Assembly: GCF_000010065.1 (NCBI RefSeq)
Contig: NC_006576.1
Span: 420,001-452,000 of the forward strand
Length of the DNA stretch: 32,000 bases
Direction: 5' to 3'
Source: Synechococcus elongatus PCC 6301
GTDB taxonomy: Bacteria > Cyanobacteriota > Cyanobacteriia > Synechococcales > Synechococcaceae
In this document: positions 1-11,500 of the stretch, one piece after another
Layout of the letters: each line of letters starts with the position of its first letter
How positions within the stretch are numbered: the first letter of the stretch is position 1
Notes under the pieces: model-generated
Database searches by the model: none
Told to the model about the DNA's origin: nothing
The model's input: the letters and a program-made list of their open reading frames with translations, nothing else
Translations under genes and position numbers: made by a program

Positions 1-42
1 TCGGCTTTGGGGTCGAGCAAAAAACAGATTGAGAGCTGGCTA

Positions 43-1368
43 TTACAATTGCTGCGGTGGACTGAAGACCAGTTGCAATTGCAACGACCACTCGCGTCGC
101 GATCGCCGTTGGAGTTGAATCTCGCGGATAAATTCCCGAAAGAAAAAGCGCCGCTCCACTTCCGAAAGATCCTGCCAGAACTGGGGAATAGCAACGGCTT
201 GCACCAATTCCGGCAGATTGACGGGCGAGAGTTGGGCTTGGCGATCGCGAAGTTGCACCAGTTCCGTTTGAAGCTGAAGCCGTCGGATAGCAGCTGTCTC
301 CGCGTCGAGGATGCCCCGCGCTTCTAAATCTGGCAGTTCAACGCTCAGAATCTGCTGCAGTTCCGCTTGGCGACTAGCGATCGCAGACTTAGCCGGATTT
401 TGCTCTGGTTGACCCAGTGCTGAAACCGCGATCGGGAGTTCCTGGCAAATGGTTTGAATCACCGTTTGCAGGCACATATCGTAGGCGATCGCGCTGCAAC
501 GCGGGCTTTGTTGACAGGCAGCAGGCGATCGCAGATAAAGGTATTCACGGTCGCTGCGGTGGGGTTTGGTGCTGCCAACAATTAGATGCGCCTGACAGGT
601 TTGGCATTGCACCAGTCCGGCCAAGCAACGGGGTGCACTGGCAGTTTTGGGGGGGAGGCGTCGATTGCGCCGCAAAATGCGATCGATCTGCGCGGCTTCT
701 TCTCGCGATACCAAGGCGGGATGGGTGTCGGCCACGATCGCTCCACTGCCGTAGACCAAATCGCCGCGATAGGCCGGATGACTCAGCCAGCGGCGCACGG
801 TCATGACTGCGATCGCCCGCTGATGTTTTTGCGAGACATAGCGGGCAGCCCCTCGCAGGGAGCCATAAATCAGGAAATGCGCGACCCCATCTCGCACCAG
901 TGCAGCTGCAGCCCGATCGATCGCATAGCGATCTTTGCCGCGACGGTAGCCAAAGGGCGCAGGGCCGGGAGGTGGCAAGGCTTGCAATCGATTTCGGGCA
1001 TGACCAGCTTTTAACCGATCGCGTTGCTGCGATCGCTGTACTTCGGCCCAAAGTGGCAGTAAATCCAGTCCAGCAGCGGAATCGAGGGGGAGAGGTTCGT
1101 CTAAACCTACGATTTGCACTTGCACGGACTGTTGCTGACAGTGCTTCAGAACGGGCAACAAGGCATCAAGGCGATCGCCCAGATCGTGGAGTTGCCGAAG
1201 CCAAAGGCGATCGCCCGGCTGCAATTCCGTCAATAGCTGCTGTAACTGAGGGCGATCGGGGGCGGGCAATCGGTCACAAAAAACCCGATCGGGGGACTCT
1301 GGCCAAGTCTCGAGGGCAACCAGCGTTTCCCAAGTCGGATTCAAAGCGTAGTAGGCGACGATCGCCAC
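43..1368 (-). CDS. Large serine recombinase family protein with a degenerate resolvase-like N-domain, a Recombinase domain, a zinc ribbon and a coiled coil; probably catalytically inactive
   Basis: 441-aa ORF with a GTG start. The Recombinase-domain signature is PAPFGYRRGKDRYAIDRAAAALVRDGVAHFL...WLSHPAYRGDLVYG. A Cys-rich ribbon (LVQCQTCQAHL...CQQSPRC) and a C-terminal coiled coil follow. The N-terminus reads AIVAYYALNPTWE where YxRVSTxxQ is expected. Confidence 0.8.
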   Translation of the reverse strand: MAIVAYYALNPTWETLVALETWPESPDRVFCDRLPAPDRPQLQQLLTELQPGDRLWLRQLHDLGDRLDALLPVLKHCQQQSVQVQIVGLDEPLPLDSAAGLDLLPLWAEVQRSQQRDRLKAGHARNRLQALPPPGPAPFGYRRGKDRYAIDRAAAALVRDGVAHFLIYGSLRGAARYVSQKHQRAIAVMTVRRWLSHPAYRGDLVYGSGAIVADTHPALVSREEAAQIDRILRRNRRLPPKTASAPRCLAGLVQCQTCQAHLIVGSTKPHRSDREYLYLRSPAACQQSPRCSAIAYDMCLQTVIQTICQELPIAVSALGQPEQNPAKSAIASRQAELQQILSVELPDLEARGILDAETAAIRRLQLQTELVQLRDRQAQLSPVNLPELVQAVAIPQFWQDLSEVERRFFFREFIREIQLQRRSRREWSLQLQLVFSPPQQL

Positions 1369-1504
1369 GACCGTCCGTCAGTAGGCTACTTTTTCAGCCA
1401 GCTAAGCATAGCCCGCGGTTTTTTGCCCACCGACCCGATCGGATGCTCAGCTTCTAGGTAGCGAATGACGGTCATTTCAAGCCAAGGCGGATCCGAGCAG
1501 CCAA

Positions 1505-1589
1505 CTAAACTCTGATTTAGTTAGAGACTCAACTGACATCGATCGCCATCAACCGGATCGCACCCTTGAGGATCACTGCGATCGCAGCA
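1505..1589. repeat. Left copy of an 85-bp imperfect direct repeat (partner at 4246-4329)
   Basis: In a hand alignment 74 of 85 columns are identical (10 substitutions, 1 indel). The last 34 columns differ at one position. The copy contains a hairpin, AACTAAA-ctctga-TTTAGTT. Confidence 0.85.
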
Positions 1590-1655
1590 CTGCCACACTT
1601 CTTGTCACTATCAGCGGTAGAAGCAGGGGAAACACTCTAAGAAACCTATCGACAA

Positions 1656-1797
1656 TTGTGGTCACAATTAGGCGTGCAATTGGATGGCGATCGCCCGCCC
1701 GCTCACAACTTGTTATTAACGCGGCAGTGGTTATTTATTGTTCCGCTTAGTCGTGAAAGCCACCTGCCGATTAACGTCAATGCCTTGGGTTTCGCGG
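1656..1797 (+). pseudogene. Fragment resembling the C-terminal domain of ATP adenylyltransferase / Ap4A phosphorylase
   Basis: The translation PPAHNLLLTRQWLFIVPLSRESHLPINVNALGFA matches the family signature as I remember it (NLLLTrxWmLlVPRS...isvNaLGFAG). The similarity stops abruptly at 1797, at a GGATCGC junction. Only about 45 residues of a protein of about 290 aa are present. Confidence 0.45.
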
Positions 1798-1839
1798 ATC
1801 GCACCCGAAAGGCCAGGGGTTCGAATCCCCTTAGCTCCA
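1798..1839 (+). pseudogene. tRNA 3'-half remnant (T arm, 3' acceptor strand and discriminator A; no 5' half)
   Basis: AGGGG-TTCGAAT-CCCCT at 1815-1831 is followed by TAGCTCC and A. The matching 5' acceptor strand GGAGCTA is not present upstream. Confidence 0.6.
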
Positions 1840-1896
1840 TCTTTCAGGAATTGAATGACTGCGAATTGCAGGCTGATCGCAGTAGCGCTAAAGGGT

Positions 1897-1955
1897 GTTC
1901 AACAGCTCACAGATTAAGTTACCAAGAACTGTTATTGGTTGGGATGCTGTTAGGT
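1897..1955 (-). other. attC-like 59-bp recombination site downstream of the nuclease gene
   Basis: On the minus strand ACCTAAC (an R'' box, RYYYAAC) starts 8 nt after the stop codon. 45 nt of imperfect inverted repeat follow (AGC/GCT, TCCCA/TGTGA, ACCAA/TTGGT), and then GTTGAAC (an R' box, GTTRRRY). Confidence 0.4.
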
Positions 1956-1963
1956 TGCTGACG

Positions 1964-3388
1964 CTATTTCATTTTACTTGCAGAGGGAAAAACTCTTCCA
2001 TCAACAACAAAAATCTCTGGTGCCCTTTTACCGGCAGCCACTTGATCCTTCCTAAATTTGATTAGCTCCTCTAAAGCTTTAATGGACTCAGTGGTTCTAA
2101 TAATTAGAAAAATACTGTATTGCGTCCGCTCAGCAGCACCATATATGGGAAGTTGTTTCTCATAACCTGCTCTAATATTATTTGATGTGTATTTTATCTC
2201 AACATTCACTCGCGCATTGTAGCCACTAGAAATTTTAAAATCGACAGGACCCCGTCCAGCGTTAGGTTCTCTATTTAAATCTAGATTATGAGCACCGCAG
2301 TAGGCAACAGCTATACCAAAGAAAAGCAATTGTGCAAAACGCTCATTCCGCAGATTTTTTGACTCATCCCAAAAATGCACAGATAACCCATTAGCCTCAA
2401 CCAAAACTTTGAAATGATCACATATCTTGAGAATTAACTGAAGAATATTTTCAGGGGTTACTTTATCTACACCCAACAAGAGTGGATAAAGATTAGCATA
2501 CTCCCTTGCGATATCAAGCCAAATGAGCTGTCCTGATGGATCCTTGTCAAAATCGTATTTTTCAGCAGAGTTTTTCTTGTATTGTTCTACTAAATCTTTC
2601 AGTAATTCGGGATGATGAAGGAGAATATATTTCAACTCACATTTTGTGATTTTTCTTCTCTTCCCTGATGCATCTTTCCAAGAATCTCCGATGATTTCAT
2701 TTACACGATTACGCAAGTCTTCGTTATGAGCACAAACACGATCAATATCATCCCAACCATTTGCGACAGGAAGGTCATTGAGAATCTCGCAAGGGATCAA
2801 TACTGTAGGACGATTGCTACCAGCAATGGCTGGAAGTAAGAATTCCTTTCCACGTGCTTTTGCTTGACAGGTATTTAAACTAAGATTTTTAGCAACTCGT
2901 TCTGAGTAAGTTGGCAAGTCCAGAAGGATTATATGAATTGTCATATCGCTGATTCGATCAGCACCGATATTTTCTTCAATAAGACCAACTAGCTCAAAAA
3001 TAACTGGATCGGTTATGCCTGCTTGTATGATTTCCCAAGCAGTGTTGGTTAGATTTAGGGCAATTCCTGAACCGATACCACTACCTGATATACCCTCTGT
3101 AGAATAGCCTAAAGATACAAATGGTAGTTCTGGAAATATCAATTTTTTGTGCGCTGCACGAAAGAAGCTATCGCCAGAATGTTTGGTTGCCTCTAAAAGA
3201 TGAATGATTTTCGTGAAATGAGTTTTGAAACTTAGATATGAGTTCTCAAGCTCTGGAATTTTGGTGCTTCTAAGAAGATGGGGATCAACATAGAACTTGG
3301 AGTCAAGATCTATAAATCCATTAAATACTCCCTCTCTTCTCAGATCTTCTTCAGTAACCCCAAAGATCTCGCTTATTCTTCTAGGCAT
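1964..3388 (-). CDS. Orphan 474-aa protein with an unknown N-terminal domain and a C-terminal PD-(D/E)XK (RecB/Cas4-like) nuclease domain
   Basis: This is a long ORF in AT-rich DNA with no HIP1 sites. The C-terminus carries E349 (NERFAQ), GPVD383F, VE397IK399 and Q412LPIY416, which is the ordered E...D...ExK...QxxxY nuclease signature. I do not recognise the N-terminal 340 aa. Confidence 0.85.
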   Translation of the reverse strand: MPRRISEIFGVTEEDLRREGVFNGFIDLDSKFYVDPHLLRSTKIPELENSYLSFKTHFTKIIHLLEATKHSGDSFFRAAHKKLIFPELPFVSLGYSTEGISGSGIGSGIALNLTNTAWEIIQAGITDPVIFELVGLIEENIGADRISDMTIHIILLDLPTYSERVAKNLSLNTCQAKARGKEFLLPAIAGSNRPTVLIPCEILNDLPVANGWDDIDRVCAHNEDLRNRVNEIIGDSWKDASGKRRKITKCELKYILLHHPELLKDLVEQYKKNSAEKYDFDKDPSGQLIWLDIAREYANLYPLLLGVDKVTPENILQLILKICDHFKVLVEANGLSVHFWDESKNLRNERFAQLLFFGIAVAYCGAHNLDLNREPNAGRGPVDFKISSGYNARVNVEIKYTSNNIRAGYEKQLPIYGAAERTQYSIFLIIRTTESIKALEELIKFRKDQVAAGKRAPEIFVVDGRVFPSASKMK

Positions 3389-3515
3389 AAAACTACTGTA
3401 AATACTGATACAAGCCTAGCGTCAGGATCGATGACAGGAGCAAATTCTCTAAAAGCTTGATTTGTCAGAAATGACGAAAGCTATGGGAGTATCGTCCTAT
3501 CCCAAAATTAAAGTA

Positions 3516-3585
3516 ACCTAACGTTGAAATTCGGCGGACGGCAAAAGCATAGCTTTTGAAGGTCCGCTAGAATGACGTGTTAGCA
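3516..3585 (-). other. attC-like 70-bp imperfect palindrome whose R' box GTTAGGT marks the 5' boundary of the nuclease cassette
   Basis: The minus strand reads TGCTAAC-acgtcattcta-GCGGACC-tt-CAAAAGC-tat-GCTTTTG-cc-GTCCGCC-gaatttcaac-GTTAGGT. The stems are 3534-3539/3562-3567 and 3542-3548/3552-3558. The R'' box is non-canonical in its first two positions. Confidence 0.35.
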
Positions 3586-3609
3586 CATTGCACATGCATG
3601 CCAAGGAAT

Positions 3610-3640
3610 TGGTGCGGAGAGGGGGAATCGACCCCCCCTA
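3610..3640 (-). pseudogene. tRNA 3'-end remnant with encoded CCA (T arm and acceptor strand), of unclear parent tRNA
   Basis: The minus strand reads GGGGG-GTCGATT-CCCCC-TCTCCGC-A-CCA. The 3' end TCCGCACCA resembles tRNA-Leu. The two native tRNA genes in this window do not encode CCA. Confidence 0.55.
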
Positions 3641-4074
3641 CGTTCACTCTTGGCAAGCAGCACAAATTCATGAACGCTAATCTCTCGTTTGGGTTGGAAT
3701 TTTCTCTTTCCAGAGACTCCGCAGGAACGCAATTCCGCACCAAACACATGCCATTACCGAAGTAAAGAAAGCGATTGAGTTTTTCATAAACACCTCCAGA
3801 GCGATCGCAATAAAGCCAAAGATAGAAGCGAAGACTTCCAACCCAAACGAGACTACGACGTTCACTTCAATGTGTACTTGTACCTCCAAGCCTGTTTTGT
3901 CGGCACCGACTAGGTCAGCACTAACTATGTATTAAGCGTCAGATCCGTTAGATAACTACCTTGATGTCTGATTTTATGCACCGGATCTACGGGATAACGC
4001 CCGAATCTTAAGGAATTAATTATCATTATCGCCGGATAACACCGTGGTTTTGGGATGTTATCCAGCATTTACCT

Positions 4075-4250
4075 ATGTCATCACCACAACCACCGTGCTT
4101 GCTTGATCAGGTGAGAGAAGCAATTCGTCCTAAACATTTCAGCCTCAAGACCGATAAGTCGTATCTTTACTACATTCGAGATTTCATCCCATCCCACAAC
4201 AAGCGCCATCCTAGAAAGATGGGGAGCGACGAGATTCGAGCTTACCTAAC
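4075..4250 (+). pseudogene. Truncated integron-integrase-like (IntI/XerD-type) tyrosine recombinase; only the N-terminal SAM-like domain remains
   Basis: LLDQVREAIRPKHFSLKTDKSYLYYIRDFIPSHNKRHPRKMGSDEIRAYL parallels the IntI1 N-terminus as I remember it ([49 protein letters not shown]). Similarity ends at about aa 58, exactly where the right direct repeat begins. The catalytic domain is absent. Confidence 0.6.
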
Positions 4251-4329
4251 TCTGATTCAGTTAGCGATTCAACTGACATCAATTGCTAACAACTCGATCG
4301 CACGCTTGAGGATCACTGCGATCGCAGCA
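4246..4329. repeat. Right copy of the 85-bp imperfect direct repeat; overlaps the MFS stop codon and its last 5 codons
   Basis: See the alignment with 1505-1589. It contains a hairpin, CTAACT-ctgattc-AGTTAG. Confidence 0.85.
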
Positions 4330-5488
4330 ACAGGCCATGCAAACCGCCCATGGCGATCGCCAGCGGCAGAATCAGTAGCGGCACCACTGCTAAGCCAGCA
4401 CCACTAGCAACCCAGCCGATTCCGGCCGGAATCAGTGCTGACCCCACACTGGCCGCACTGGTTGCAAAACCAACCGTCGCTGGAACCAAGCCTTCTGGTA
4501 GGCGTTTGGGAATCAGCCAGATGATGGTGGGGAAAATGGCAGCCAGCACAAAGCCAATTAACGGCAAACTGATCAGCGACTGAGGCTGCTGCCACCAGCC
4601 AATCAGCCCAACCATCAGCAAGCCCAGTGAGAGGGTAATGGTGCGGAGTCCACCCAGCGATCGCAAGCTGTAGCTCAGCAAGAATCGACCTGCCGTCAAT
4701 CCCGGCCTGTAGGCACTCAGGCCATAGCCTGCCCAAAGAGCTGGTGTTGCCCGAGCGATCGTTTGGACGCTGTAAGCCCAGTGGCTAACCGAGGCTTCGA
4801 TGCCGACATAGATCAGCAGAAATGCCCCAAACAAGAACACGATCGGGGTGCGGAGCGATCGCCGAAGTTGCACATCGGCAGAGGCGGCAAGCAGGTCTGG
4901 ATTCTTGAGCAGGGGCGGGTAGCGATAGAAGAGCGCCGCCAATACGCCCACCAGAAGCAAGCTAGTGAGCATGGCGAGAACGCTGTAGACTTGCCGCCAC
5001 TCCAAGCCCAAAGCCAACAGTGTGGTCGCGATCGCAGGCCCGGCAAAAGCGCCAATGCCATAGAAGCCGTGCAGCGCTCCCAGCAAATGCGCCGTGCGAT
5101 CGTCCTGCACCAGCGTTGTGTTGATGCCTGCATCAATCAACCCAATGCCCATGCCCAGCAGTGGCCCCGCCAGCACCATCAGTAGCCAAGCCGGAACGAG
5201 GGCATAAATCAGTAGTGCGGCGGTTAGCAGACTTGCAGCCAAGACCAGCAATCGTCCTAGCCCTAGTCGTGCCATGACCAAACTGCTGGCGATCGCCGCG
5301 AGGATGTAGCCACAGATCTGACTGATAAACAGCAGCGTGATCGTGGCTGAGGTCAGCCCATACTCCGCCAGAATTGAGGGCAACAGGACACCAAGACTGG
5401 CTTCTGCTAAACCGATACTGATGAAGGCATAGAAGGCGATCGCCACACTGATCCAAAGTGGCGGTGATGACTGAGCGACGAGGCGCAT
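4313..5488 (-). CDS. MFS transporter
   Basis: 391-aa protein that is hydrophobic throughout. It has the appearance of a 12-TM protein with two six-helix halves. It is the last gene of a tightly spaced minus-strand cluster. Confidence 0.8.
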   Translation of the reverse strand: MRLVAQSSPPLWISVAIAFYAFISIGLAEASLGVLLPSILAEYGLTSATITLLFISQICGYILAAIASSLVMARLGLGRLLVLAASLLTAALLIYALVPAWLLMVLAGPLLGMGIGLIDAGINTTLVQDDRTAHLLGALHGFYGIGAFAGPAIATTLLALGLEWRQVYSVLAMLTSLLLVGVLAALFYRYPPLLKNPDLLAASADVQLRRSLRTPIVFLFGAFLLIYVGIEASVSHWAYSVQTIARATPALWAGYGLSAYRPGLTAGRFLLSYSLRSLGGLRTITLSLGLLMVGLIGWWQQPQSLISLPLIGFVLAAIFPTIIWLIPKRLPEGLVPATVGFATSAASVGSALIPAGIGWVASGAGLAVVPLLILPLAIAMGGLHGLLLRSQ

Positions 5489-5503
5489 GGCTCTAACTCC
5501 GGC

Positions 5504-5959
5504 TTAGCGATCGCGGTCTAAATGGGTCAGCGTAACGGCGACCAGCAACAGACCAATCGCAACAACGCGAGACGGGCTGATCGGTTGAGGGGTAAGGCCA
5601 AACCAACCCCATTGGTCAATAACCAAGGACATCACCAACTGACTGCAGACCACCGCGAGCATCGTGGTCGTGAGCCCTAGCCTGCCAATGACCAGCGTAT
5701 TCAGGGTCACGTAGACGGCTCCAAGGCCACCTCCACAAAATGCCCAGATCGGCACTTGTCCAAGGTGATCGAGGGATTGAGCACCAAACACACCCAGCAC
5801 TAAGAGCAGCGACAGGGTACTGGAGCCGACGATGAAGTTGATGGCTGTTGCTGCAATGGGAGACCGCAGCGTTTGCTTCAGTCGAGCGTTGGCTGCCGCT
5901 CCTATGGATAGCAACCCGCCGCCCGATCCAGCACCCAGTAATGCAATCAAAACATCCAT
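5504..5959 (-). CDS. Half-size DMT-superfamily membrane protein (DUF606/YdcZ-like)
   Basis: 151 aa with about 5 TM segments. The N-terminal pattern G..L.I.AA.NARL...L.SP..A..INF.VG is typical of YdcZ-type proteins. It lies 3 nt downstream of a paralogous gene. Confidence 0.7.
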   Translation of the reverse strand: MDVLIALLGAGSGGGLLSIGAAANARLKQTLRSPIAATAINFIVGSSTLSLLLVLGVFGAQSLDHLGQVPIWAFCGGGLGAVYVTLNTLVIGRLGLTTTMLAVVCSQLVMSLVIDQWGWFGLTPQPISPSRVVAIGLLLVAVTLTHLDRDR

Positions 5960-5962
5960 GAC

Positions 5963-6457
5963 TTAAGCCCTCGGTTGCAACAGAAAGAAGAGAGCGATCG
6001 CGAATAGCCCCAAAGCCGCCCGCCGCAGGGGTGTCAGGCGATGCCGAGGCACATTCAGCCAGCCGTAGTGATCCGTGATGACGCTGACGATCGCCTGTCC
6101 ACTGACCACCAGGCCGAGTGTCAGGGTGGTGCCCAGAACAGAGGCGAAGTGCGTACTCGAAAGGACGTACCAAGGCCCCAGTACACCCCCAAGCCAACTC
6201 CAGCAAGGCGCGTGGGCGATCGCAGACCAGCGCGGGCGTCCAAACCGACCGCTGAGTAGCAGGCTGACAAGAACAACAGTGCCAGTCACATAAGAGAGCG
6301 TCGCCGCCAGAGGGACAGAGTCGAGCGATCGCGCCAGCTGAGCATTGCAACTGACTTGAATTGGCAGGATGGCGCCACTGAGCAGAGCCAGCCCCAGAAA
6401 CAAACAGACTTGGCAGCGAGCAGCAATCTGCCGCCAACTGGAACGGAGCAAAATCAT
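5963..6457 (-). CDS. Half-size DMT-superfamily membrane protein (DUF606/YdcZ-like), paralog of the adjacent gene
   Basis: 164 aa with about 5 TM segments and the motif PIQVSCNAQLARSL.S...A...SY..G. The start codon is uncertain. Confidence 0.7.
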   Translation of the reverse strand: MILLRSSWRQIAARCQVCLFLGLALLSGAILPIQVSCNAQLARSLDSVPLAATLSYVTGTVVLVSLLLSGRFGRPRWSAIAHAPCWSWLGGVLGPWYVLSSTHFASVLGTTLTLGLVVSGQAIVSVITDHYGWLNVPRHRLTPLRRAALGLFAIALFFLLQPRA

Positions 6458-6505
6458 TGAGGGCTAGCCTCTGAATTGGCTGTGACTGGGTAGATGCCGG
6501 TTGCC

Positions 6506-7411
6506 CTAGGCGGCGATCGCCTTGGTGGCATAAGAACCTTGGGTAAGCTCCTGAAACACCCCAGGAGCCACAGGTTGCCAGTGAAGTAGTTGTCTGGCGC
6601 GATCGCCCGAGACCCGTTGATCGAGAGTAAGCGCATCGGCCAAATCTCCCCAGATTGCCCGAGCCTCCTCCAGCGTCAAGTGCTGCAAGCGATCACCCAG
6701 TCCTAATGTCTTGGCGATCGTCAGAGCCACTTGTTGCATCGAGACAGACTCGCCACTGGCACCAATCAGCAGGGTTCTGGCTGGTGCCTGCTCAATCGCT
6801 GCGACATAGAGTGCTGCCAGATCATCGATGTGAATGAAGGACCAAGCATTGTCTCCTGCACCAATCACGGGGACTGCCCCTTGGCTTTGGCCTGCTTGCA
6901 TCAGCATGGGAAGCAAGCCCCCACCCCGTCCATAGACGAGTGCAGGCCGAATCACGATCGATCGCACCCCTTGGTCAGCCGCCGACAAAACCAGTGCTTC
7001 CACGGCGGGTCGCCATGCCACCAGCGCTGGTGGATTGAGCGGGAACGTTTCATCCGCGACCGTTGCGCCGGTATTACCCATGACCCAAAGGCCGCTGGTG
7101 TAGAGGAAGGGTTTTTGAGTGCCTGCGATCGCTGCCAACAAAGTTTTCACAGCTTGCCGATCCACCAGACCCATAGCTGCATCATTGGTGGCAGCCGTGT
7201 GAATGACCGCATCAGCTTGAGCCGCGGCTTGTTGCAAGGCGACGGCATCCGTGAGGTCACCGCGACAGGGTTGAATTCCCGCAGCCTCTAGTCGCTGAGC
7301 CGTAGCTGCCGATCGCGCCAAGGCAGTCACCCGATGGCCTTTGGACTGAATAGCAGCCGCGATCGCCCGCCCTAAATAACCCGTTGCGCTTGTGAGGAGG
7401 ATGTTCATCAA
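6506..7411 (-). CDS. NAD(P)-binding atypical SDR (epimerase/NmrA-like)
   Basis: The N-terminal Rossmann motif is MNILLTSATGYLGRAI. The protein is 301 aa and is divergent from a MarR gene. Confidence 0.8.
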   Translation of the reverse strand: MMNILLTSATGYLGRAIAAAIQSKGHRVTALARSAATAQRLEAAGIQPCRGDLTDAVALQQAAAQADAVIHTAATNDAAMGLVDRQAVKTLLAAIAGTQKPFLYTSGLWVMGNTGATVADETFPLNPPALVAWRPAVEALVLSAADQGVRSIVIRPALVYGRGGGLLPMLMQAGQSQGAVPVIGAGDNAWSFIHIDDLAALYVAAIEQAPARTLLIGASGESVSMQQVALTIAKTLGLGDRLQHLTLEEARAIWGDLADALTLDQRVSGDRARQLLHWQPVAPGVFQELTQGSYATKAIAA

Positions 7412-7439
7412 TGATCCTTCGGGCTAGAACTCGCCCAGA

Positions 7440-7463
7440 AACTATCTTGATATCAAGATAGTT
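7440..7463. promoter_or_regulatory. Perfect 24-bp palindrome AACTATCTTGATATCAAGATAGTT, a candidate MarR operator
   Basis: The sequence is its own reverse complement. It lies in the 101-bp divergent SDR/MarR intergenic region. It overlaps a possible minus-strand promoter (TTGACA at 7483-7478, TATCTT at 7460-7455). Confidence 0.5.
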
Positions 7464-7486
7464 AAGGTAAAGGCGACTGTCAAGAA

Positions 7487-7506
7487 TCTCGACGTCGAGA
7501 TATAAT
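7487..7506 (+). promoter_or_regulatory. Second palindrome TCTCGACGTCGAGA abutting a consensus -10 box TATAAT, 6 nt upstream of the MarR ATG
   Basis: The 14-bp palindrome is at 7487-7500, TATAAT at 7501-7506 and the ATG at 7513. This spacing implies a leaderless or near-leaderless mRNA. Confidence 0.4.
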
Positions 7507-7512
7507 GAAGCC

Positions 7513-8013
7513 ATGGCTTCAGACAAAATCGATCGCATTCTTGAGCAGTGGCAGCAGGAACTGCCCCAGGTCAACGTCGCTCCGCTCGCTGTCACGGGTC
7601 GGTTGTTGCGCATTGCCCGTCTGCTCGAAAAGCAGCGCGAGACCTTGCTGGCGAAGTACGGTCTCAGTGTTTGGTCCTTTGATGTGCTGGCAACGCTGCG
7701 CCGTCAGGGGCCGCCCTATCAACTCAAGCCAACGGATCTCTACAGCCTGTTGATGCTCTCCTCGGGGGCGATGACTAATCGCATCGATCGCCTAGAGCAG
7801 GATGGAATTGTGGTGCGATCGCGAAGTGGCAGCGATCGCCGTAGCGTGATTGTGCAACTGACGCCCAAAGGCATTGCGCTTGCAGATGCAGTGATGCCTG
7901 TCCTTTTTGCTCAAGAAGGGGCGCTGCTCTCCGAATTTGCGACTCCAGAGGAGGTGGAGAGACTTGTACCGCTCCTGAGAAGACTGCTGTTAGCAATGGA
8001 TGCAGCTGAGTAA
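7513..8013 (+). CDS. MarR family transcriptional regulator
   Basis: 166 aa with a winged-helix pattern (LSVWSFDVLATLRRQG...LSSGAMTNRIDRLEQDGIVVRSRSGSDRRSVIVQLTPKG). Confidence 0.9.
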   Translation: MASDKIDRILEQWQQELPQVNVAPLAVTGRLLRIARLLEKQRETLLAKYGLSVWSFDVLATLRRQGPPYQLKPTDLYSLLMLSSGAMTNRIDRLEQDGIVVRSRSGSDRRSVIVQLTPKGIALADAVMPVLFAQEGALLSEFATPEEVERLVPLLRRLLLAMDAAE

Positions 8014-8356
8014 TTAGGCCATTTCACAACGCAAAATCCGGCTACGAAGCAGCTAACTGTTTAGAGCCAGAGAACTTTCAAACCGAATTTTTAGAGCAGA
8101 CTGGTAGGCGATCGCTATTCCTTTGTGACGTCCAAACGATGTCACTTCTCTCATGTGGTTTAATTTTCACCAAGTTCAAACACCGCAGTTTATGTGTATT
8201 TCTGTTTATTGGCTGCCATTGCTGTTTCCGGCTGTCATACTAGCGATGCTAGGAAAAGCCCCCCTATAAAAACGGTATCTTTGTGGACTCCTGAGTGGTC
8301 ACAGGAAGCTTTAGACTATCGTGGCCAGTCGCTGCTCAATTTGCAGAACACCGACG

Positions 8357-11300
8357 ATGGAACAATCTTCACGCCAGTTCTTCGAGCAAATTAGCCGCGA
8401 AGATTGGGAACAAACGCCGGAAAGTGTTCAGCAACTCGTTAGAGCACTACTCGCTGAAAGCGACTTGGTCACCGAGGAAAGTGAACAAGCAAGTACTGGC
8501 CGTCTTGCCATCGATCAATACTTTCGAGAGAGTCTACGCTACCAACAGGTTGTCGAAGCCCAGACAGACTTGATTCTGCGATCGCGTTCAGATACGACGG
8601 TTGTATTTGCCAACAAACCTCTTTGTCAAGTTCTTGGTTGGCAAGATGGAGATATCAGCGGACAAACTTGGGGAAACTTGGTTCCTCCAAATGATCTCTC
8701 TGAACTTCATGAAAAAATTGCAGGATTAAGCCTAGAAAATCCAACTTTTGAAAGCTTAAACCGTAACTACGGAGCTGATCAGAGAATAAAATGGATTCAA
8801 TGGGTTAATCAAGGCATCTTTAATGACAGAGGAGAGCTGATTGAGATCCAGTCTGTTGGCCGAGATGTCACAACTCTAATTGAGCAAATCACAAGGGAAA
8901 AAACATTAAATTATGTCTTTGAAGCAATCCGAAATTCCCTGGATTTAGAGGTTATTTTTGCAACTGCAACTAAAGAATTAGCGAAAACATTAAATGGTTT
9001 AGATTGTTATATTGTCCAGTATTTGGAAGAGCAAAGAATCTGGACTCATGTTGCTGAGTTTCAGCATGACGAAAATCAAGAATCAAGACTCGGCATTGAG
9101 ATTCAGGACTTAGACAACCCTTTCGCAGAACAGTTAAAAAAATTCCAAGTTGTTAGAGTTGAAAATACTCAAAATATTAATGACAAGATCAATAGAGAGC
9201 TAGCTAAGTCTACACCTGGAGCGTGGCTACTGGTTCCCTTGATTGTTGAAGAAAAATTATGGGGGAGCTTCACAATTGTTTCAAATCAGAAACCTTTTAT
9301 ATGGAGTGATGGTTATGTTGATCTTGCCAGAAGTATTTCTAGACAATTAGAGATTGCTATTTATCAAGCTGATCTCTATCAAAAAATTCAACAGGAACTA
9401 AGCGATCGCAGCAAAGCAGAGCTGGCTCTACAAGAAAGCCAGACCCGATTTCAAAGAATCGCTGACAATTTGCCAGGAATTATTTATGGCTATAAATTGA
9501 GGCAGGATGGCACAGATCAATTCACCTATATTAGTTCTGGTTTTAGAGAGGTTTATGGCATTGATCCAGAAACAGCTTTAGAAAACAGTAATGTTGTTTG
9601 GGGAATGATTCATCCAGAAGATATTGAGTACTTAAAGACTTCAATCATCAAGTCTCAGCAAACACTTAAAACTTGGAAGGTTGAATATCGAATCATTACT
9701 AAGAATGGTGAATTAAAATGGATGCAGGGACGAGCTCGTCCGACTCGCCAAGAAAACGGTGAGACTTTTTGGGATGGACTCATTATTGATATTAGCGATC
9801 GCAAAAAAATAGAAGCTGAATTACAAACAAGTGAGGAGCGCTATCGGCTACTAGCTGAAAATATGAATGATTTAGTCTGTTTGCATCAAGCAGATGGAAC
9901 TTACCTTTATGTCAGCCCTTCTGCTGAAGCCCTACTGGGATTCAGTAGTGAGGAAATGGTCGGCCAGAACCCCTATGATTTTTTCCACCCAGAAGACTGC
10001 GATCGCATCCGAGATGAAGCTCACCAAGCCGTGTTAATGGGGGCCGAACTACCGATTGTTTATCGAATGCGAAAAAAACTAGGGGGATATATTTGGTTTG
10101 AGACTCTCACTAAACCGATCATGGATGATCAAGGTGTTGTGATTGGACTACAAACAACCTCTCGGGATGTAACTCAGCGTATTGAAATTCAAAATCAGCT
10201 TCAATATGATGCTTGTCACGATAGTCTAACGGGGTTAGCTAACCGTAATTTACTAATTGAAAGACTTGAACTATCGCTTAAAAGATCAAAAAGATTACAA
10301 AACTATAAGTACGCAGTCTTATTCCTTGATCTCGATCGCTTCAAAGTGATTAACGATAGCTTGGGGCATATCACAGGCGATCAGCTTTTGGTCAGCATCG
10401 CCCAAAAGCTACAGTCAATAATTCGCTCTCATGACTTGGCTGCTCGCTTAGGAGGTGATGAATTTGTAGTTCTAGTCGAGGATATTCAAACCTTTGATGA
10501 GCCAATCAAAGTTGCCGAGCGAATTCTTGCAGCTATTCAAGTTCCTTTAGAACTCGAAGAACGGTCAATTTACACCTCAACAAGTATTGGCATTGTCTTT
10601 GGTAGCCATGAGTATGAGAGTGCAACACAGCTGCTGAGAGATGCGGATACTGCGATGTATCGGGCAAAATCTAGGGGTAGAGCTCGCTACGAAGTTTTTG
10701 ATAGCGCAATGCATTCTCAAGCTTTAGCGAGGTTACATCTCGAAAATGACTTGCGGCAAGCGATCGCTCGACAAGAATTTGTCCTCTACTACCAGCCAAT
10801 TATCCAATTGCAGACTGGTAAGATTACAGGCTTCGAGGCTTTGATTCGTTGGCAGCATCCAACTGAGGGCATCAAGCTGCCGATCGACCTAATCCCTATT
10901 GCGGAAGAGACGGGTTTAATCACCAGTATTGACTATTGGGTACTAAATCAAGCCTGTCGGCAGCTCTCTGAATGGCAAGCCAGCTATTCACAGGCAGCAG
11001 ATTTAAGTATGAGCGTGAATCTATCGGCTCAAAACCTTCAGCATGACCACCTCATGGATGAAATTCAATCGGTTTTGCAAGCTACAAAGATTAAGCCTGG
11101 CTCATTAACTTTAGAAATTACGGAAAGTATGCTGATTGAAAATACCGATCAGACAATTCAACTACTTGCCGCCATTAATGAGCAAGGCATAGAAATTAGC
11201 ATTGATGACTTTGGAACCGGATATTCCTCGTTGAGTTATCTGCACAAACTACCTGTCAACAACCTAAAGGTTGATGGCTCGTTTGTTCGTAAAATTACGA

Positions 11301-11500
11301 CTGAATCAACTAATTACCAGATCGTTAATACTATCATTGCCCTAAATAATCAACTAGGACTAAAAGCGATCGCAGAGGGAATTGAAACCCATGAGCAACT
11401 CGACCTACTTAGTCAGTTAGGCTACCAGTATGGCCAAGGATATCTCTTTGCTAGACCCCTTAATGCCAAAGATGTTGAGCAGCTTTTCTTGAGCAATTAA
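8357..11500 (+). CDS. Multidomain c-di-GMP signalling protein: PAS, GAF, two PAS, GGDEF and EAL domains
   Basis: It has an intact GGDEF motif (RLGGDEFVV) and EAL motifs (FEALIRW, DDFGTGYSSLSYL). PAS/PAC repeats are present (WKVEYRIITKNGELKWMQ; IVYRMRKKLGGYIWFE). The ORF opens at 8321 (GTG), and the first ATG is at 8357. Confidence 0.9.
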   Translation: MEQSSRQFFEQISREDWEQTPESVQQLVRALLAESDLVTEESEQASTGRLAIDQYFRESLRYQQVVEAQTDLILRSRSDTTVVFANKPLCQVLGWQDGDISGQTWGNLVPPNDLSELHEKIAGLSLENPTFESLNRNYGADQRIKWIQWVNQGIFNDRGELIEIQSVGRDVTTLIEQITREKTLNYVFEAIRNSLDLEVIFATATKELAKTLNGLDCYIVQYLEEQRIWTHVAEFQHDENQESRLGIEIQDLDNPFAEQLKKFQVVRVENTQNINDKINRELAKSTPGAWLLVPLIVEEKLWGSFTIVSNQKPFIWSDGYVDLARSISRQLEIAIYQADLYQKIQQELSDRSKAELALQESQTRFQRIADNLPGIIYGYKLRQDGTDQFTYISSGFREVYGIDPETALENSNVVWGMIHPEDIEYLKTSIIKSQQTLKTWKVEYRIITKNGELKWMQGRARPTRQENGETFWDGLIIDISDRKKIEAELQTSEERYRLLAENMNDLVCLHQADGTYLYVSPSAEALLGFSSEEMVGQNPYDFFHPEDCDRIRDEAHQAVLMGAELPIVYRMRKKLGGYIWFETLTKPIMDDQGVVIGLQTTSRDVTQRIEIQNQLQYDACHDSLTGLANRNLLIERLELSLKRSKRLQNYKYAVLFLDLDRFKVINDSLGHITGDQLLVSIAQKLQSIIRSHDLAARLGGDEFVVLVEDIQTFDEPIKVAERILAAIQVPLELEERSIYTSTSIGIVFGSHEYESATQLLRDADTAMYRAKSRGRARYEVFDSAMHSQALARLHLENDLRQAIARQEFVLYYQPIIQLQTGKITGFEALIRWQHPTEGIKLPIDLIPIAEETGLITSIDYWVLNQACRQLSEWQASYSQAADLSMSVNLSAQNLQHDHLMDEIQSVLQATKIKPGSLTLEITESMLIENTDQTIQLLAAINEQGIEISIDDFGTGYSSLSYLHKLPVNNLKVDGSFVRKITTESTNYQIVNTIIALNNQLGLKAIAEGIETHEQLDLLSQLGYQYGQGYLFARPLNAKDVEQLFLSN

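Follow-up and report, generated by a model that had tools for sequence, protein, structure and literature searches.

The region at nt 1897-4250 of a 32,000-nt stretch of Synechococcus elongatus PCC 6301 (contig NC_006576.1, nt 420,001-452,000; hereafter the window, meaning the whole of the DNA analysed) was found to be, with a probability of about 0.85, what is left of a chromosomal integron belonging to the cyanobacterial IntI lineage. Integrons are gene-capture platforms of bacteria. The parts surviving here were a stub of the integrase gene intI, the attI site, one genuine attC site, and a captured intact gene encoding a nuclease-like protein of 474 aa (Table 1). Because the attI crossover lies at 3925|3924 and an attC at 3585-3516, the array could be resolved into two cassettes, cassette 1 (3924 to 3522) and cassette 2 (from 3521), the latter possessing a hybrid or deleted attC. 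A first-pass annotation made from the sequence alone had already proposed a decayed integron platform at this position; that proposal held, whereas its placement of the 3' attC and the extent it gave to the cassette did not, and it had overlooked attI and the first cassette of 403 nt (3924-3522).

Table 1. Features of the integron remnant and its flanks in the window
Feature	Location (nt)	Strand	Description
Left copy of 91-nt direct repeat	1499..1589	+	85% identity to the right copy, spacing 2740; also in L009 at 6670-6751
tmRNA/tRNA 3'-end-like fragment	1785..1840	+	Partial match to Rfam tmRNA, 17.3 bits, E 9e-4; conserved in L008 and L009
Terminal hairpin region	1897..1948	-	Conserved flank ending in GTTGAAC; may be a degenerate last attC; joins cassette 2 at CTAACA (1953-1948)
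Cassette 2	1949..3521	-	133-nt leader, gene 3388-1964 (474 aa), 8 nt, R'' box ACCTAAC (1955-1949); remainder of the 87-nt attC missing
attC of cassette 1	3516..3585	-	R'' TGCTAAC (3585-3579), R' GTTAGGT (3522-3516); crossover G3522|T3521
Cassette 1	3522..3924	-	403 nt, T3924 to G3522; no convincing gene; palindromic element resembling a miniature inverted-repeat transposable element (MITE); ends in attC 3585-3516
attI region	3923..4074	-	GGATAAC/GTTATCC repeats; conserved core GATCTGACGCTTAATACATAGTT at 3945-3923; crossover G3925|T3924
intI pseudogene stub	4075..4250	+	First 59 or so codons of an integron integrase gene; similarity weak from there to about 4296, remainder deleted
Right copy of 91-nt direct repeat	4239..4329	+	Overlaps the intI break-point and the 3' end of a major facilitator superfamily (MFS) transporter gene (4313-5488, minus strand)

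Cassette 2 was delimited by comparison with its copies elsewhere (the loci compared are designated L followed by a number). Nt 1948-3523 shared 89% nt identity with metagenomic contigs L001-L006 and 88.7% with L007, the genome of a member of the Thermosynechococcaceae. In L001-L006, the gene for the 474-aa protein stood within an array of unrelated genes, each followed by a repeat of about 87 nt belonging to one family; the 87-nt attC directly following the gene scored 96-97 bits, and L002 and L005 had an adjacent intact integrase scoring 456 bits on TIGR02249 (cutoff 265). The shared attC family and the adjacent integrase indicate that L001-L006 are genuine integrons and that the gene is a genuine cassette. 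Homology to cassette 2 ended at 3518-3523, where the upstream sequences differed in three independent contexts and converged at G|TTAGG, a 5' boundary common to the window, the L001-type loci and L007; the metagenomic copies had the 3' boundary GAACG|TTA, and contigs sharing an attC parted right after GTTA (L001 versus L004; L004 versus L006). The 5' boundary G|TTAGGT (3522|3521) predicted in the first-pass annotation is thus where homology starts in all three contexts. The gene, as had been noted, is the sole intact one to the left of the intI stub and lies on the opposite strand (1964-3388, minus), between the flank and the stub. Its GC content was 38% versus 58% in the flanks, and the ratio of nonsynonymous to synonymous substitution rates (dN/dS) was 0.09 against the L001 copy, indicating purifying selection on an intact gene.

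The complementarity of TTAGGT at the 5' end to ACCTAA after the gene, also pointed out earlier, corresponds to the R'/R'' relation of a real cassette, and a metagenomic copy has TTAGGC and ACCTAAC at these positions. With flanking bases the inverted match extends to 8 bp, GTTAGGTT (1949-1956) and AACCTAAC (3515-3522), as had been described. These repeats could also be taken for the terminal inverted repeats (TIRs) of a selfish element (GTTAGGTT...AACCTAAC) in which the protein, a member of the DUF8370 and DUF8371 families, would serve as transposase or homing nuclease, since perfect 8-bp inverted repeats terminate the homologous unit 1948-3523, the gene occurs in many unrelated contexts and the product has a nuclease-like motif. 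This reading was rejected as highly improbable because the mobile unit elsewhere extends through the attC, running in L001-L006 for 80 nt past the presumed TIR to the G|TTA of attC. Unrelated neighbouring genes carry the same attC family, an intact IntI is adjacent in the metagenomic arrays, R'/R'' complementarity accounts exactly for the inverted 8-mers, and a homologue in S. elongatus CP144288 (L010) lacks these ends. Two further arrangements of this cassette were observed. In L007 (strain BACA0444, nt 11426-11460), it occurs alone with no integron nearby, and its attC has collapsed to ACCTAAC-AACC-GTTATAG, as if the interior of the hairpin had been deleted. In L004 (339-782) and L006 (2157-2600), an IS200-like Y1 transposase gene together with a hairpin of the repetitive extragenic palindromic type replaces the first 25 nt or so of the cassette, so that their homology begins at window position 3518 instead of 3523.

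At the other end of the array, a five-way alignment of the window, L008, L009, L019 and L020 showed conservation up to ...TAGTT(A/G)G followed by divergence; the loci share ...GATCTGACRCTTAATRCWTAG|TT and part immediately thereafter. A search with the core pattern detected the 23-nt attI core in 15 metagenome loci, among which G|TT is immediately followed by at least 11 different sequences, and L036 provided a further case in which the core is followed by unrelated DNA. In total, 21 loci possessed the core end TAG|TT with unrelated sequence following it, which identifies the core as the attI of an integron, and IntI genes in various states adjoin it in these loci. The insertions at this point would have been made by IntI.

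To the left of attI, the attC of cassette 1 was recognised by covariance models. Model R1 was built from 11 attCs of other cyanobacterial loci, none from the window, and had compensatory changes in 11 of its 19 pairs; the consensus fold of these sites comprised a 5-bp R box, a 3-nt spacer, an L box and unpaired bases on the R''-L'' arm. Model R2 was broader, with 23 sites. On independently fetched loci with the attI pattern, R1 found 8 distinct attCs not seen before, at 23-93 bits and all on the array strand (10 matches, the same site being present in two pairs of loci). When both strands of the whole 32 kb were scanned with filters off, the sole significant match was 3516-3585 on the minus strand (26.1 bits with R1 and 25.9 bits with R2, E 1.6e-4). 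As DNA, this 70-nt palindrome folded beyond chance, with z = -3.3 for the top strand and -3.9 for the bottom strand, and the fold had extra bases on the R''-L'' arm and asymmetric bulges on the 5' arm. It is a genuine attC. The first-pass annotation had recognised GTTAGGT (3522-3516) at the end of this 70-bp imperfect palindrome (3585-3516), and that observation was confirmed.

Should there be no integron at all, the heptamers would have arisen by chance, and the low-GC gene would be an ordinary island gained by horizontal transfer, lying beside an unrelated integrase fragment of phage type. The heptamer pair on its own is indeed at chance level: RYYYAAC-N40-120-GTTRRRY occurred at 3 sites in the window versus about 1 expected, and at least one such site was present in 15% of simulated regions of 2.35 kb. 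Nor did Rfam give an attC family, the only match at E up to 1 in nt 1-9000 being a partial tmRNA-like one at 1785-1832. The breakpoints and the attC-model match, together with the other comparative evidence, refute this explanation and leave it with practically no probability.

Cassette 1, bounded by the attI crossover and the R' box of its attC, had no relatives among the loci fetched. It contains a palindromic element of about 200 nt within 3590-3895, in which a perfect 17-nt inverted repeat (3683-3699/3836-3852) can be extended to about 30 nt and another hairpin (3598-3660) carries the T-arm-like sequence GGGGGGGTCGATTCCCCC. The element folded with z = -4.8 and -4.9 on the two strands and had no Rfam match. 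A 70-aa open reading frame (ORF) on its minus strand (3677-3889) had 64 relatives among 1.84 billion cluster representatives, and the invariant positions were those of the helix arms. The palindrome is probably a dispersed structured DNA/RNA element of a MITE-like kind.

The stub at 4075-4250 had been described as an N-terminal IntI-like fragment, and the profile searches bore this out. It matched positions 1-53 of the 85 in Phage_int_SAM_4 (Pfam PF13495, E 1.2e-12), and its best NCBIfam models were those of integron integrases, TIGR02249 (positions 1-56 of 315) and PRK15417. Identity was 48% to the N-terminus of an intact IntI and about 73%, counted by eye, to the IntI of L027, which adjoins the same attI. 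Longer relatives beside the same attI scored 384 and 368 bits on TIGR02249, above its cutoff of 265, and both contained the IntI-specific segment LPYALERKYPNA..WGWQYVFPS; the 384-bit copy is an open reading frame of 280 aa, the 368-bit copy has an internal deletion of 45 aa, and the other copies are shorter stubs. The named proteins among the top 120 homologues were mostly annotated as integron integrase. Cyanobacteria commonly have full-length relatives of about 320 aa, and hundreds of full-length IntI are annotated among them; the closest relatives of the stub are themselves stubs (71-97 aa), two of them at syntenic loci in complete S. elongatus genomes. Judged by these similarities, the stub is of the IntI lineage and belongs with neither the phage nor the XerC/D recombinases, a grouping that would have spoken against the earlier proposal.

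Loss of the rest of intI is evident from a tblastn search with a complete IntI, in which 4081-4296 was the sole match anywhere in the window. Neither the catalytic domain nor the IntI-specific segment is encoded in these 32 kb, and the window thus contains no intact intI. Within the stub, the substitutions L19P and LF39-40PS affect residues that are otherwise nearly invariant. The gene ends at about aa 59-65 in the window, at the 91-nt repeat, and at aa 93 in L008 and L009, where it is joined to the 3' half of marR, a gene found intact at 7513-8013 of the window; in L019 it has a frameshift with similarity reaching aa 116, and in L020 aa 84-279 are missing. As the lesions differ by lineage, inactivation of intI was repeated and at least partly independent. 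The dN/dS of the stub was 0.04-0.10 between distant copies and 0.31-0.56 among a close trio that differs by very few substitutions; these values are compatible with relaxed constraint, and the low ones between distant copies may predate independent truncations. The remnant in L020 (10016-10367) joins the N-terminal 83 aa to the C-terminal 40 aa, the C-terminal part being 95% identical to the IntI of L002 and the N-terminal part only 58%, which suggests a recombinant or chimeric origin.

Two of the loci named above, L008 (S. elongatus CP143871) and L009 (S. elongatus CP143853/IITB4), are complete genomes with the same order as the window: an XisF-like serine recombinase, an ATP-adenylyltransferase fragment, a tmRNA-like fragment, the terminal hairpin, minus-strand cargo, attI and the intI stub. 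They were compared with the window where the second cassette ends. There, on the minus strand, the heptamer ACCTAAC (1955-1949) is located 8 nt after the stop codon and GTTGAAC at 1903-1897, giving a site of 59 nt, and the first-pass annotation had regarded this site as the attC of a self-contained cassette of 1619 bp (3521 to 1903) that IntI could mobilise in trans. The heptamers and their coordinates were correct, as was the 5' end of that cassette, but 1903 is not a demonstrated boundary and the site is not the cassette's own attC. In a five-way alignment, the window tracked the cassette copies (L001, L007) to ...CAACCTAACA and the S. elongatus flank (L008, L009) from CTAACAGCATC; what remains of the cassette's own attC is the R'' box, and the following 45 nt and GTTGAAC are conserved flank. 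Identity to L008 and L009, which carry other cassettes, was 85-88% over 48-1953 and 91-92% over 1780-1953. Elsewhere the same cassette has an unrelated attC of 87 nt, with which the window has only ACCTAACA in common. Neither R1 nor R2 matched 1897-1955 at E up to 10, nor did they match the orthologous site in L008 or L009, and the fold was weak on the array strand (z = -0.9 versus -2.7 on the other strand). The covariance and folding checks that the first-pass annotation had called for therefore favoured 3516-3585 and went against 1897-1955; likewise, the alignment with related genomes broke at 3522|3521 and not at 1903. The 1619-bp cassette is not without points in its favour, since the heptamers match RYYYAAC and GTTRRRY, AACAGC pairs with GCTGTT beside the boxes, the plus strand of the site folds at z = -2.7, and the S. 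elongatus copy of the site retains an L-box-like TCCCA/TGGGA pair. Set against the flank identity, the unrelated attC of the other copies, the failure of the models at this site in all three genomes, and the occurrence of such a heptamer pair by chance in 15% of regions of this size, it is very unlikely.

The terminal site may be a decayed short attC: that of L008 retains the AACAG/CTGTT and TCCCA/TGGGA pairs, the latter being mutated in the window. In L008 and L009 it closes a remnant of about 180 nt that lacks ORFs and is located after the R' box of the attC of the first cassette. The simplest history would be a deletion between two R'' cores through CTAACA microhomology, removing the rest of the attC of cassette 2 together with this remnant, either by slippage or by IntI acting on the top strand.

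Compared with these two genomes, 48-1953 and 3923-4271 of the window could be aligned, the latter at 77-79% identity, and everything in between differed. Flanks of L008 and L009 were 94-97% identical to each other, yet their first cassettes were different and were joined precisely at G|TT of attI; the window and L036 represent two more variants. The cargo in the window is the 403-nt unit plus the DUF8370/DUF8371 cassette, that in L008 a Schlafen/AlbA_2-HATPase protein, that in L009 the PARIS proteins AriA and AriB (PADLOC, 5e-28 and 5e-23), and that in L036 two other genes. With different cargo in the same slot of close relatives, the locus behaves as a variable slot for defence genes. Furthermore, since L008 and L009 share the same intI deletion and differ in cassette 1, the exchange would postdate the inactivation of intI and could have been effected by IntI provided in trans or, in a naturally competent host, through homologous replacement. 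A stronger form of this idea is that the slot beside the dead intI is still being refilled, the exchange proceeding through a transient IntI on transforming DNA or a plasmid, or through the XisF-like serine recombinase, or that the IntI stub has been retained to serve some role itself, for example the binding or regulation of attI; this was considered rather unlikely. In L019, the same sequence of about 150 nt follows two different attCs of one array (6167-6399 and 8433-8760) and looks like a duplicated small cassette.

The 474-aa protein consists of DUF8370 and DUF8371 and belongs to a family with more than 800 homologues. D383, E397 and K399 were invariant in 42 homologues, and in an AlphaFold model (mean pLDDT, the predicted local distance difference test, 80.5) they lie on adjacent predicted strands (382-386 and 393-400), as in PD-(D/E)XK nucleases. 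The top Foldseek matches in the PDB were the restriction endonucleases or nickases Nt.BspD6I, Kpn2I, BbvCI and Ecl18kI, all weak (E 0.01-1). No meaningful match was obtained in a profile search of PDB sequences, and none in a Pfam copy without the DUF8370 and DUF8371 models. PADLOC gave a weak partial match of residues 24-210 to the candidate family PDC-M36A (E 4e-6), beyond which the curated models of defence systems, including PARIS, gave none. The modelled fold and the invariant D...ExK motif suggest that the protein most plausibly acts on its own as a nuclease of the phage-defence or restriction type.

At a larger scale, the mobile unit could be an integrative island inserted in the 3' end of a host gene and comprising the ATP_transf fragment, the tmRNA-like fragment, the array and the intI stub, with the integron as a passenger and movement by the XisF-like recombinase or by homologous recombination. 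Such an island is compatible with the integron reading, from which it differs in scale, and it is less likely than not. It agrees with the 91-nt direct repeat that brackets 1590-4238, with the copies of the 3' end of ilvC (71 nt) that bracket the homologous island in L008 and L009, with the tmRNA-like 3' fragment, and with the adjacent recombinase gene, whose synteny is conserved. It is disfavoured by the position of that gene outside the repeats, by the identity of only 85% between the repeats, by the failure to find a genome with an empty site, and by the differences between strains, which lie at the G|TT of individual cassettes rather than at the ends of the island.

Several observations were made on these flanks. 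The recombinase gene (43-1368, minus strand) encodes a large serine recombinase of 441 aa whose best NCBIfam model was XisF, the excisase of the fdxN element (E 3e-33, below the cutoff), and it may have a role in movement of the island; a scan of genome contigs with it gave only relatives of 44-55% identity without synteny, and one with the MFS protein gave no relatives. Exact look-ups with proteins encoded in the window were likewise without a match. The 71-nt ilvC copy is located at 1387-1457, just upstream of the recombinase gene, and forms direct repeats around the whole island in L008 (7258-7328 and 10615-10685) and L009 (6549-6619 and 10617-10687), an arrangement that looks as if the S. 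elongatus island had integrated into the end of ilvC. The 91-nt repeat brackets the whole remnant and is made up, as a mosaic, of stretches resembling intI and stretches resembling the flank. A C-terminal fragment of an ATP adenylyltransferase (Ap4A phosphorylase; 1656-1795, Pfam ATP_transf), also present in L008 and L009, is broken off by the tmRNA-like fragment, a junction that may be the scar of an older integration; ARAGORN detected no tRNA or tmRNA in the region. To the right of the stub, 3.5 kb of the window (4272-7806) is absent from L008 and L009, comprising the MFS transporter, two YdcZ-type exporters, an NAD-dependent epimerase and the 5' half of marR; the direct fusion of intI codon 93 to the 3' half of marR in these genomes is a lineage-specific deletion. 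Farther on, nt 8321-11500 (plus strand) form a second low-GC segment (36-46%) that encodes a 1059-aa PAS/GGDEF/EAL protein and is probably another horizontally acquired region.

Against an integron remnant in the window, the following points have to be weighed. The terminal site at 1897-1955 was not recognised by the attC models and folds weakly, so that a single attC of the window passes the model. By the definition of a cluster of attC sites lacking an integron integrase (CALIN), which demands at least 2 attC within 4 kb and no intI, the locus has one attC that passes and one attC-like site that fails, and the IntegronFinder rule of at least 2 attCs might deny it even CALIN status. The attC models were specific to this family and were built in the present analysis, the generic IntegronFinder model not being among them, and the search for intI covered the 32-kb window. 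A crude scan of 3925-4250 on the array strand revealed no sigma-70-like Pc promoter, although cyanobacterial promoters vary. The homologue of the cassette gene in L010 is located outside any integron and has no attC-like ends, and a homologue with 72% identity likewise occurs away from integrons. As to the product of the cassette gene, the nuclease assignment consists of a motif and non-significant Foldseek hits (E 0.01-0.3), and no relative has a solved structure.

Taken as an integron remnant, the locus may have arisen as follows. An IntI tyrosine recombinase would once have inserted circular cassettes at G|TT of attI (3925|3924, minus strand), and a short array would have grown leftwards, pointing away from intI. 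Two units are left of it, the 403-nt cassette, in which no convincing gene is present and which has a bona fide attC, and, joined to it at 3522|3521, the low-GC DUF8370/DUF8371 cassette. Later, intI was shortened to about 59 codons, and cassette 2 lost its own 87-nt attC past the R'' box, most likely by the deletion between two R'' core repeats (CTAACA) considered above, which would have joined it to the array's degenerate terminal site. Lacking an integrase, and with the 3' attC of cassette 2 incomplete, the platform is inert in cis.

The element is of a type already known, and the locus is a further example without a new mechanism, since integrons, cyanobacterial attC models and decayed intI genes have all been published. 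In S. elongatus and its relatives, the lineage of a major cyanobacterial model organism, it reveals an eroded chromosomal integron whose single variable slot holds different anti-phage genes in different strains. In naturally transformable hosts, this is a tractable locus for the study of integron death, of cassette turnover after loss of the integrase, and of the role of the widespread DUF8370/DUF8371 protein. For annotation, it links a low-GC hypothetical gene with a site-specific integrase stub that would otherwise seem unrelated to it.

Integrons in Cyanobacteria have been published (Cury et al. 2016, PMC4889954), as has a Cyanobacteria-specific attC model (Ghaly et al. 2021, PMC8352920). 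The supposition in the first-pass annotation that integrons are undescribed in such cyanobacteria does not apply to the phylum; in the narrow sense it stands, as no paper on an integron remnant in S. elongatus or its clade was found in the literature. The window shares with the sedentary chromosomal integrons of cyanobacteria (L001-L006, L019, L029) the IntI lineage, the attI core, the attC arms TGCAGCGGA...GCCGCTGA, and the DUF8370/DUF8371 cassette at 89% nt identity. Unlike the window, which is the eroded end-state, those integrons have intact or nearly intact IntI, multi-cassette arrays and complete attCs. In the same survey (PMC4889954), 15 of 279 CALIN had an intI pseudogene within 10 kb. 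The locus is similar to these in having cassettes and attC with a recognisable intI remnant in place of a working integrase, but the published search was for C-terminal intI pseudogenes, whereas only the N-terminus is left here and the requirement for at least 2 attCs may be unmet.

Integron cassettes encoding phage defence (bioRxiv 10.1101/2024.07.02.601719) and the recruitment and shuffling of cassettes via natural transformation (PMC12614218) have also been published. Like such defence integrons, the present locus and its relatives carry compact defence genes as cassettes in competent hosts (PARIS in L009, restriction endonuclease-like and Schlafen-like genes in relatives, and the putative PD-(D/E)XK protein in the window); unlike in those, the defence role of the DUF8370/DUF8371 protein is putative and the local integrase is dead, so that any turnover of cassettes must occur in trans or by homologous recombination. 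The closest analogue is the chromosomal integron of Xanthomonas located downstream of ilvD, in which intI has decayed (Colombi et al., bioRxiv 10.1101/2025.06.18.660453). Both are ancestral and fixed at their locus, both have lost intI repeatedly and in a lineage-specific manner (by deletion, stops and frameshifts in Xanthomonas), both have arrays that vary by strain, and the S. elongatus remnant likewise adjoins a gene of branched-chain amino-acid synthesis, ilvC. The remnant differs from the Xanthomonas integrons in its phylum and attC family, in its array of two cassettes, in an intI reduced to 59 codons, in a last cassette without attC, and in cargo enriched in phage-defence genes.

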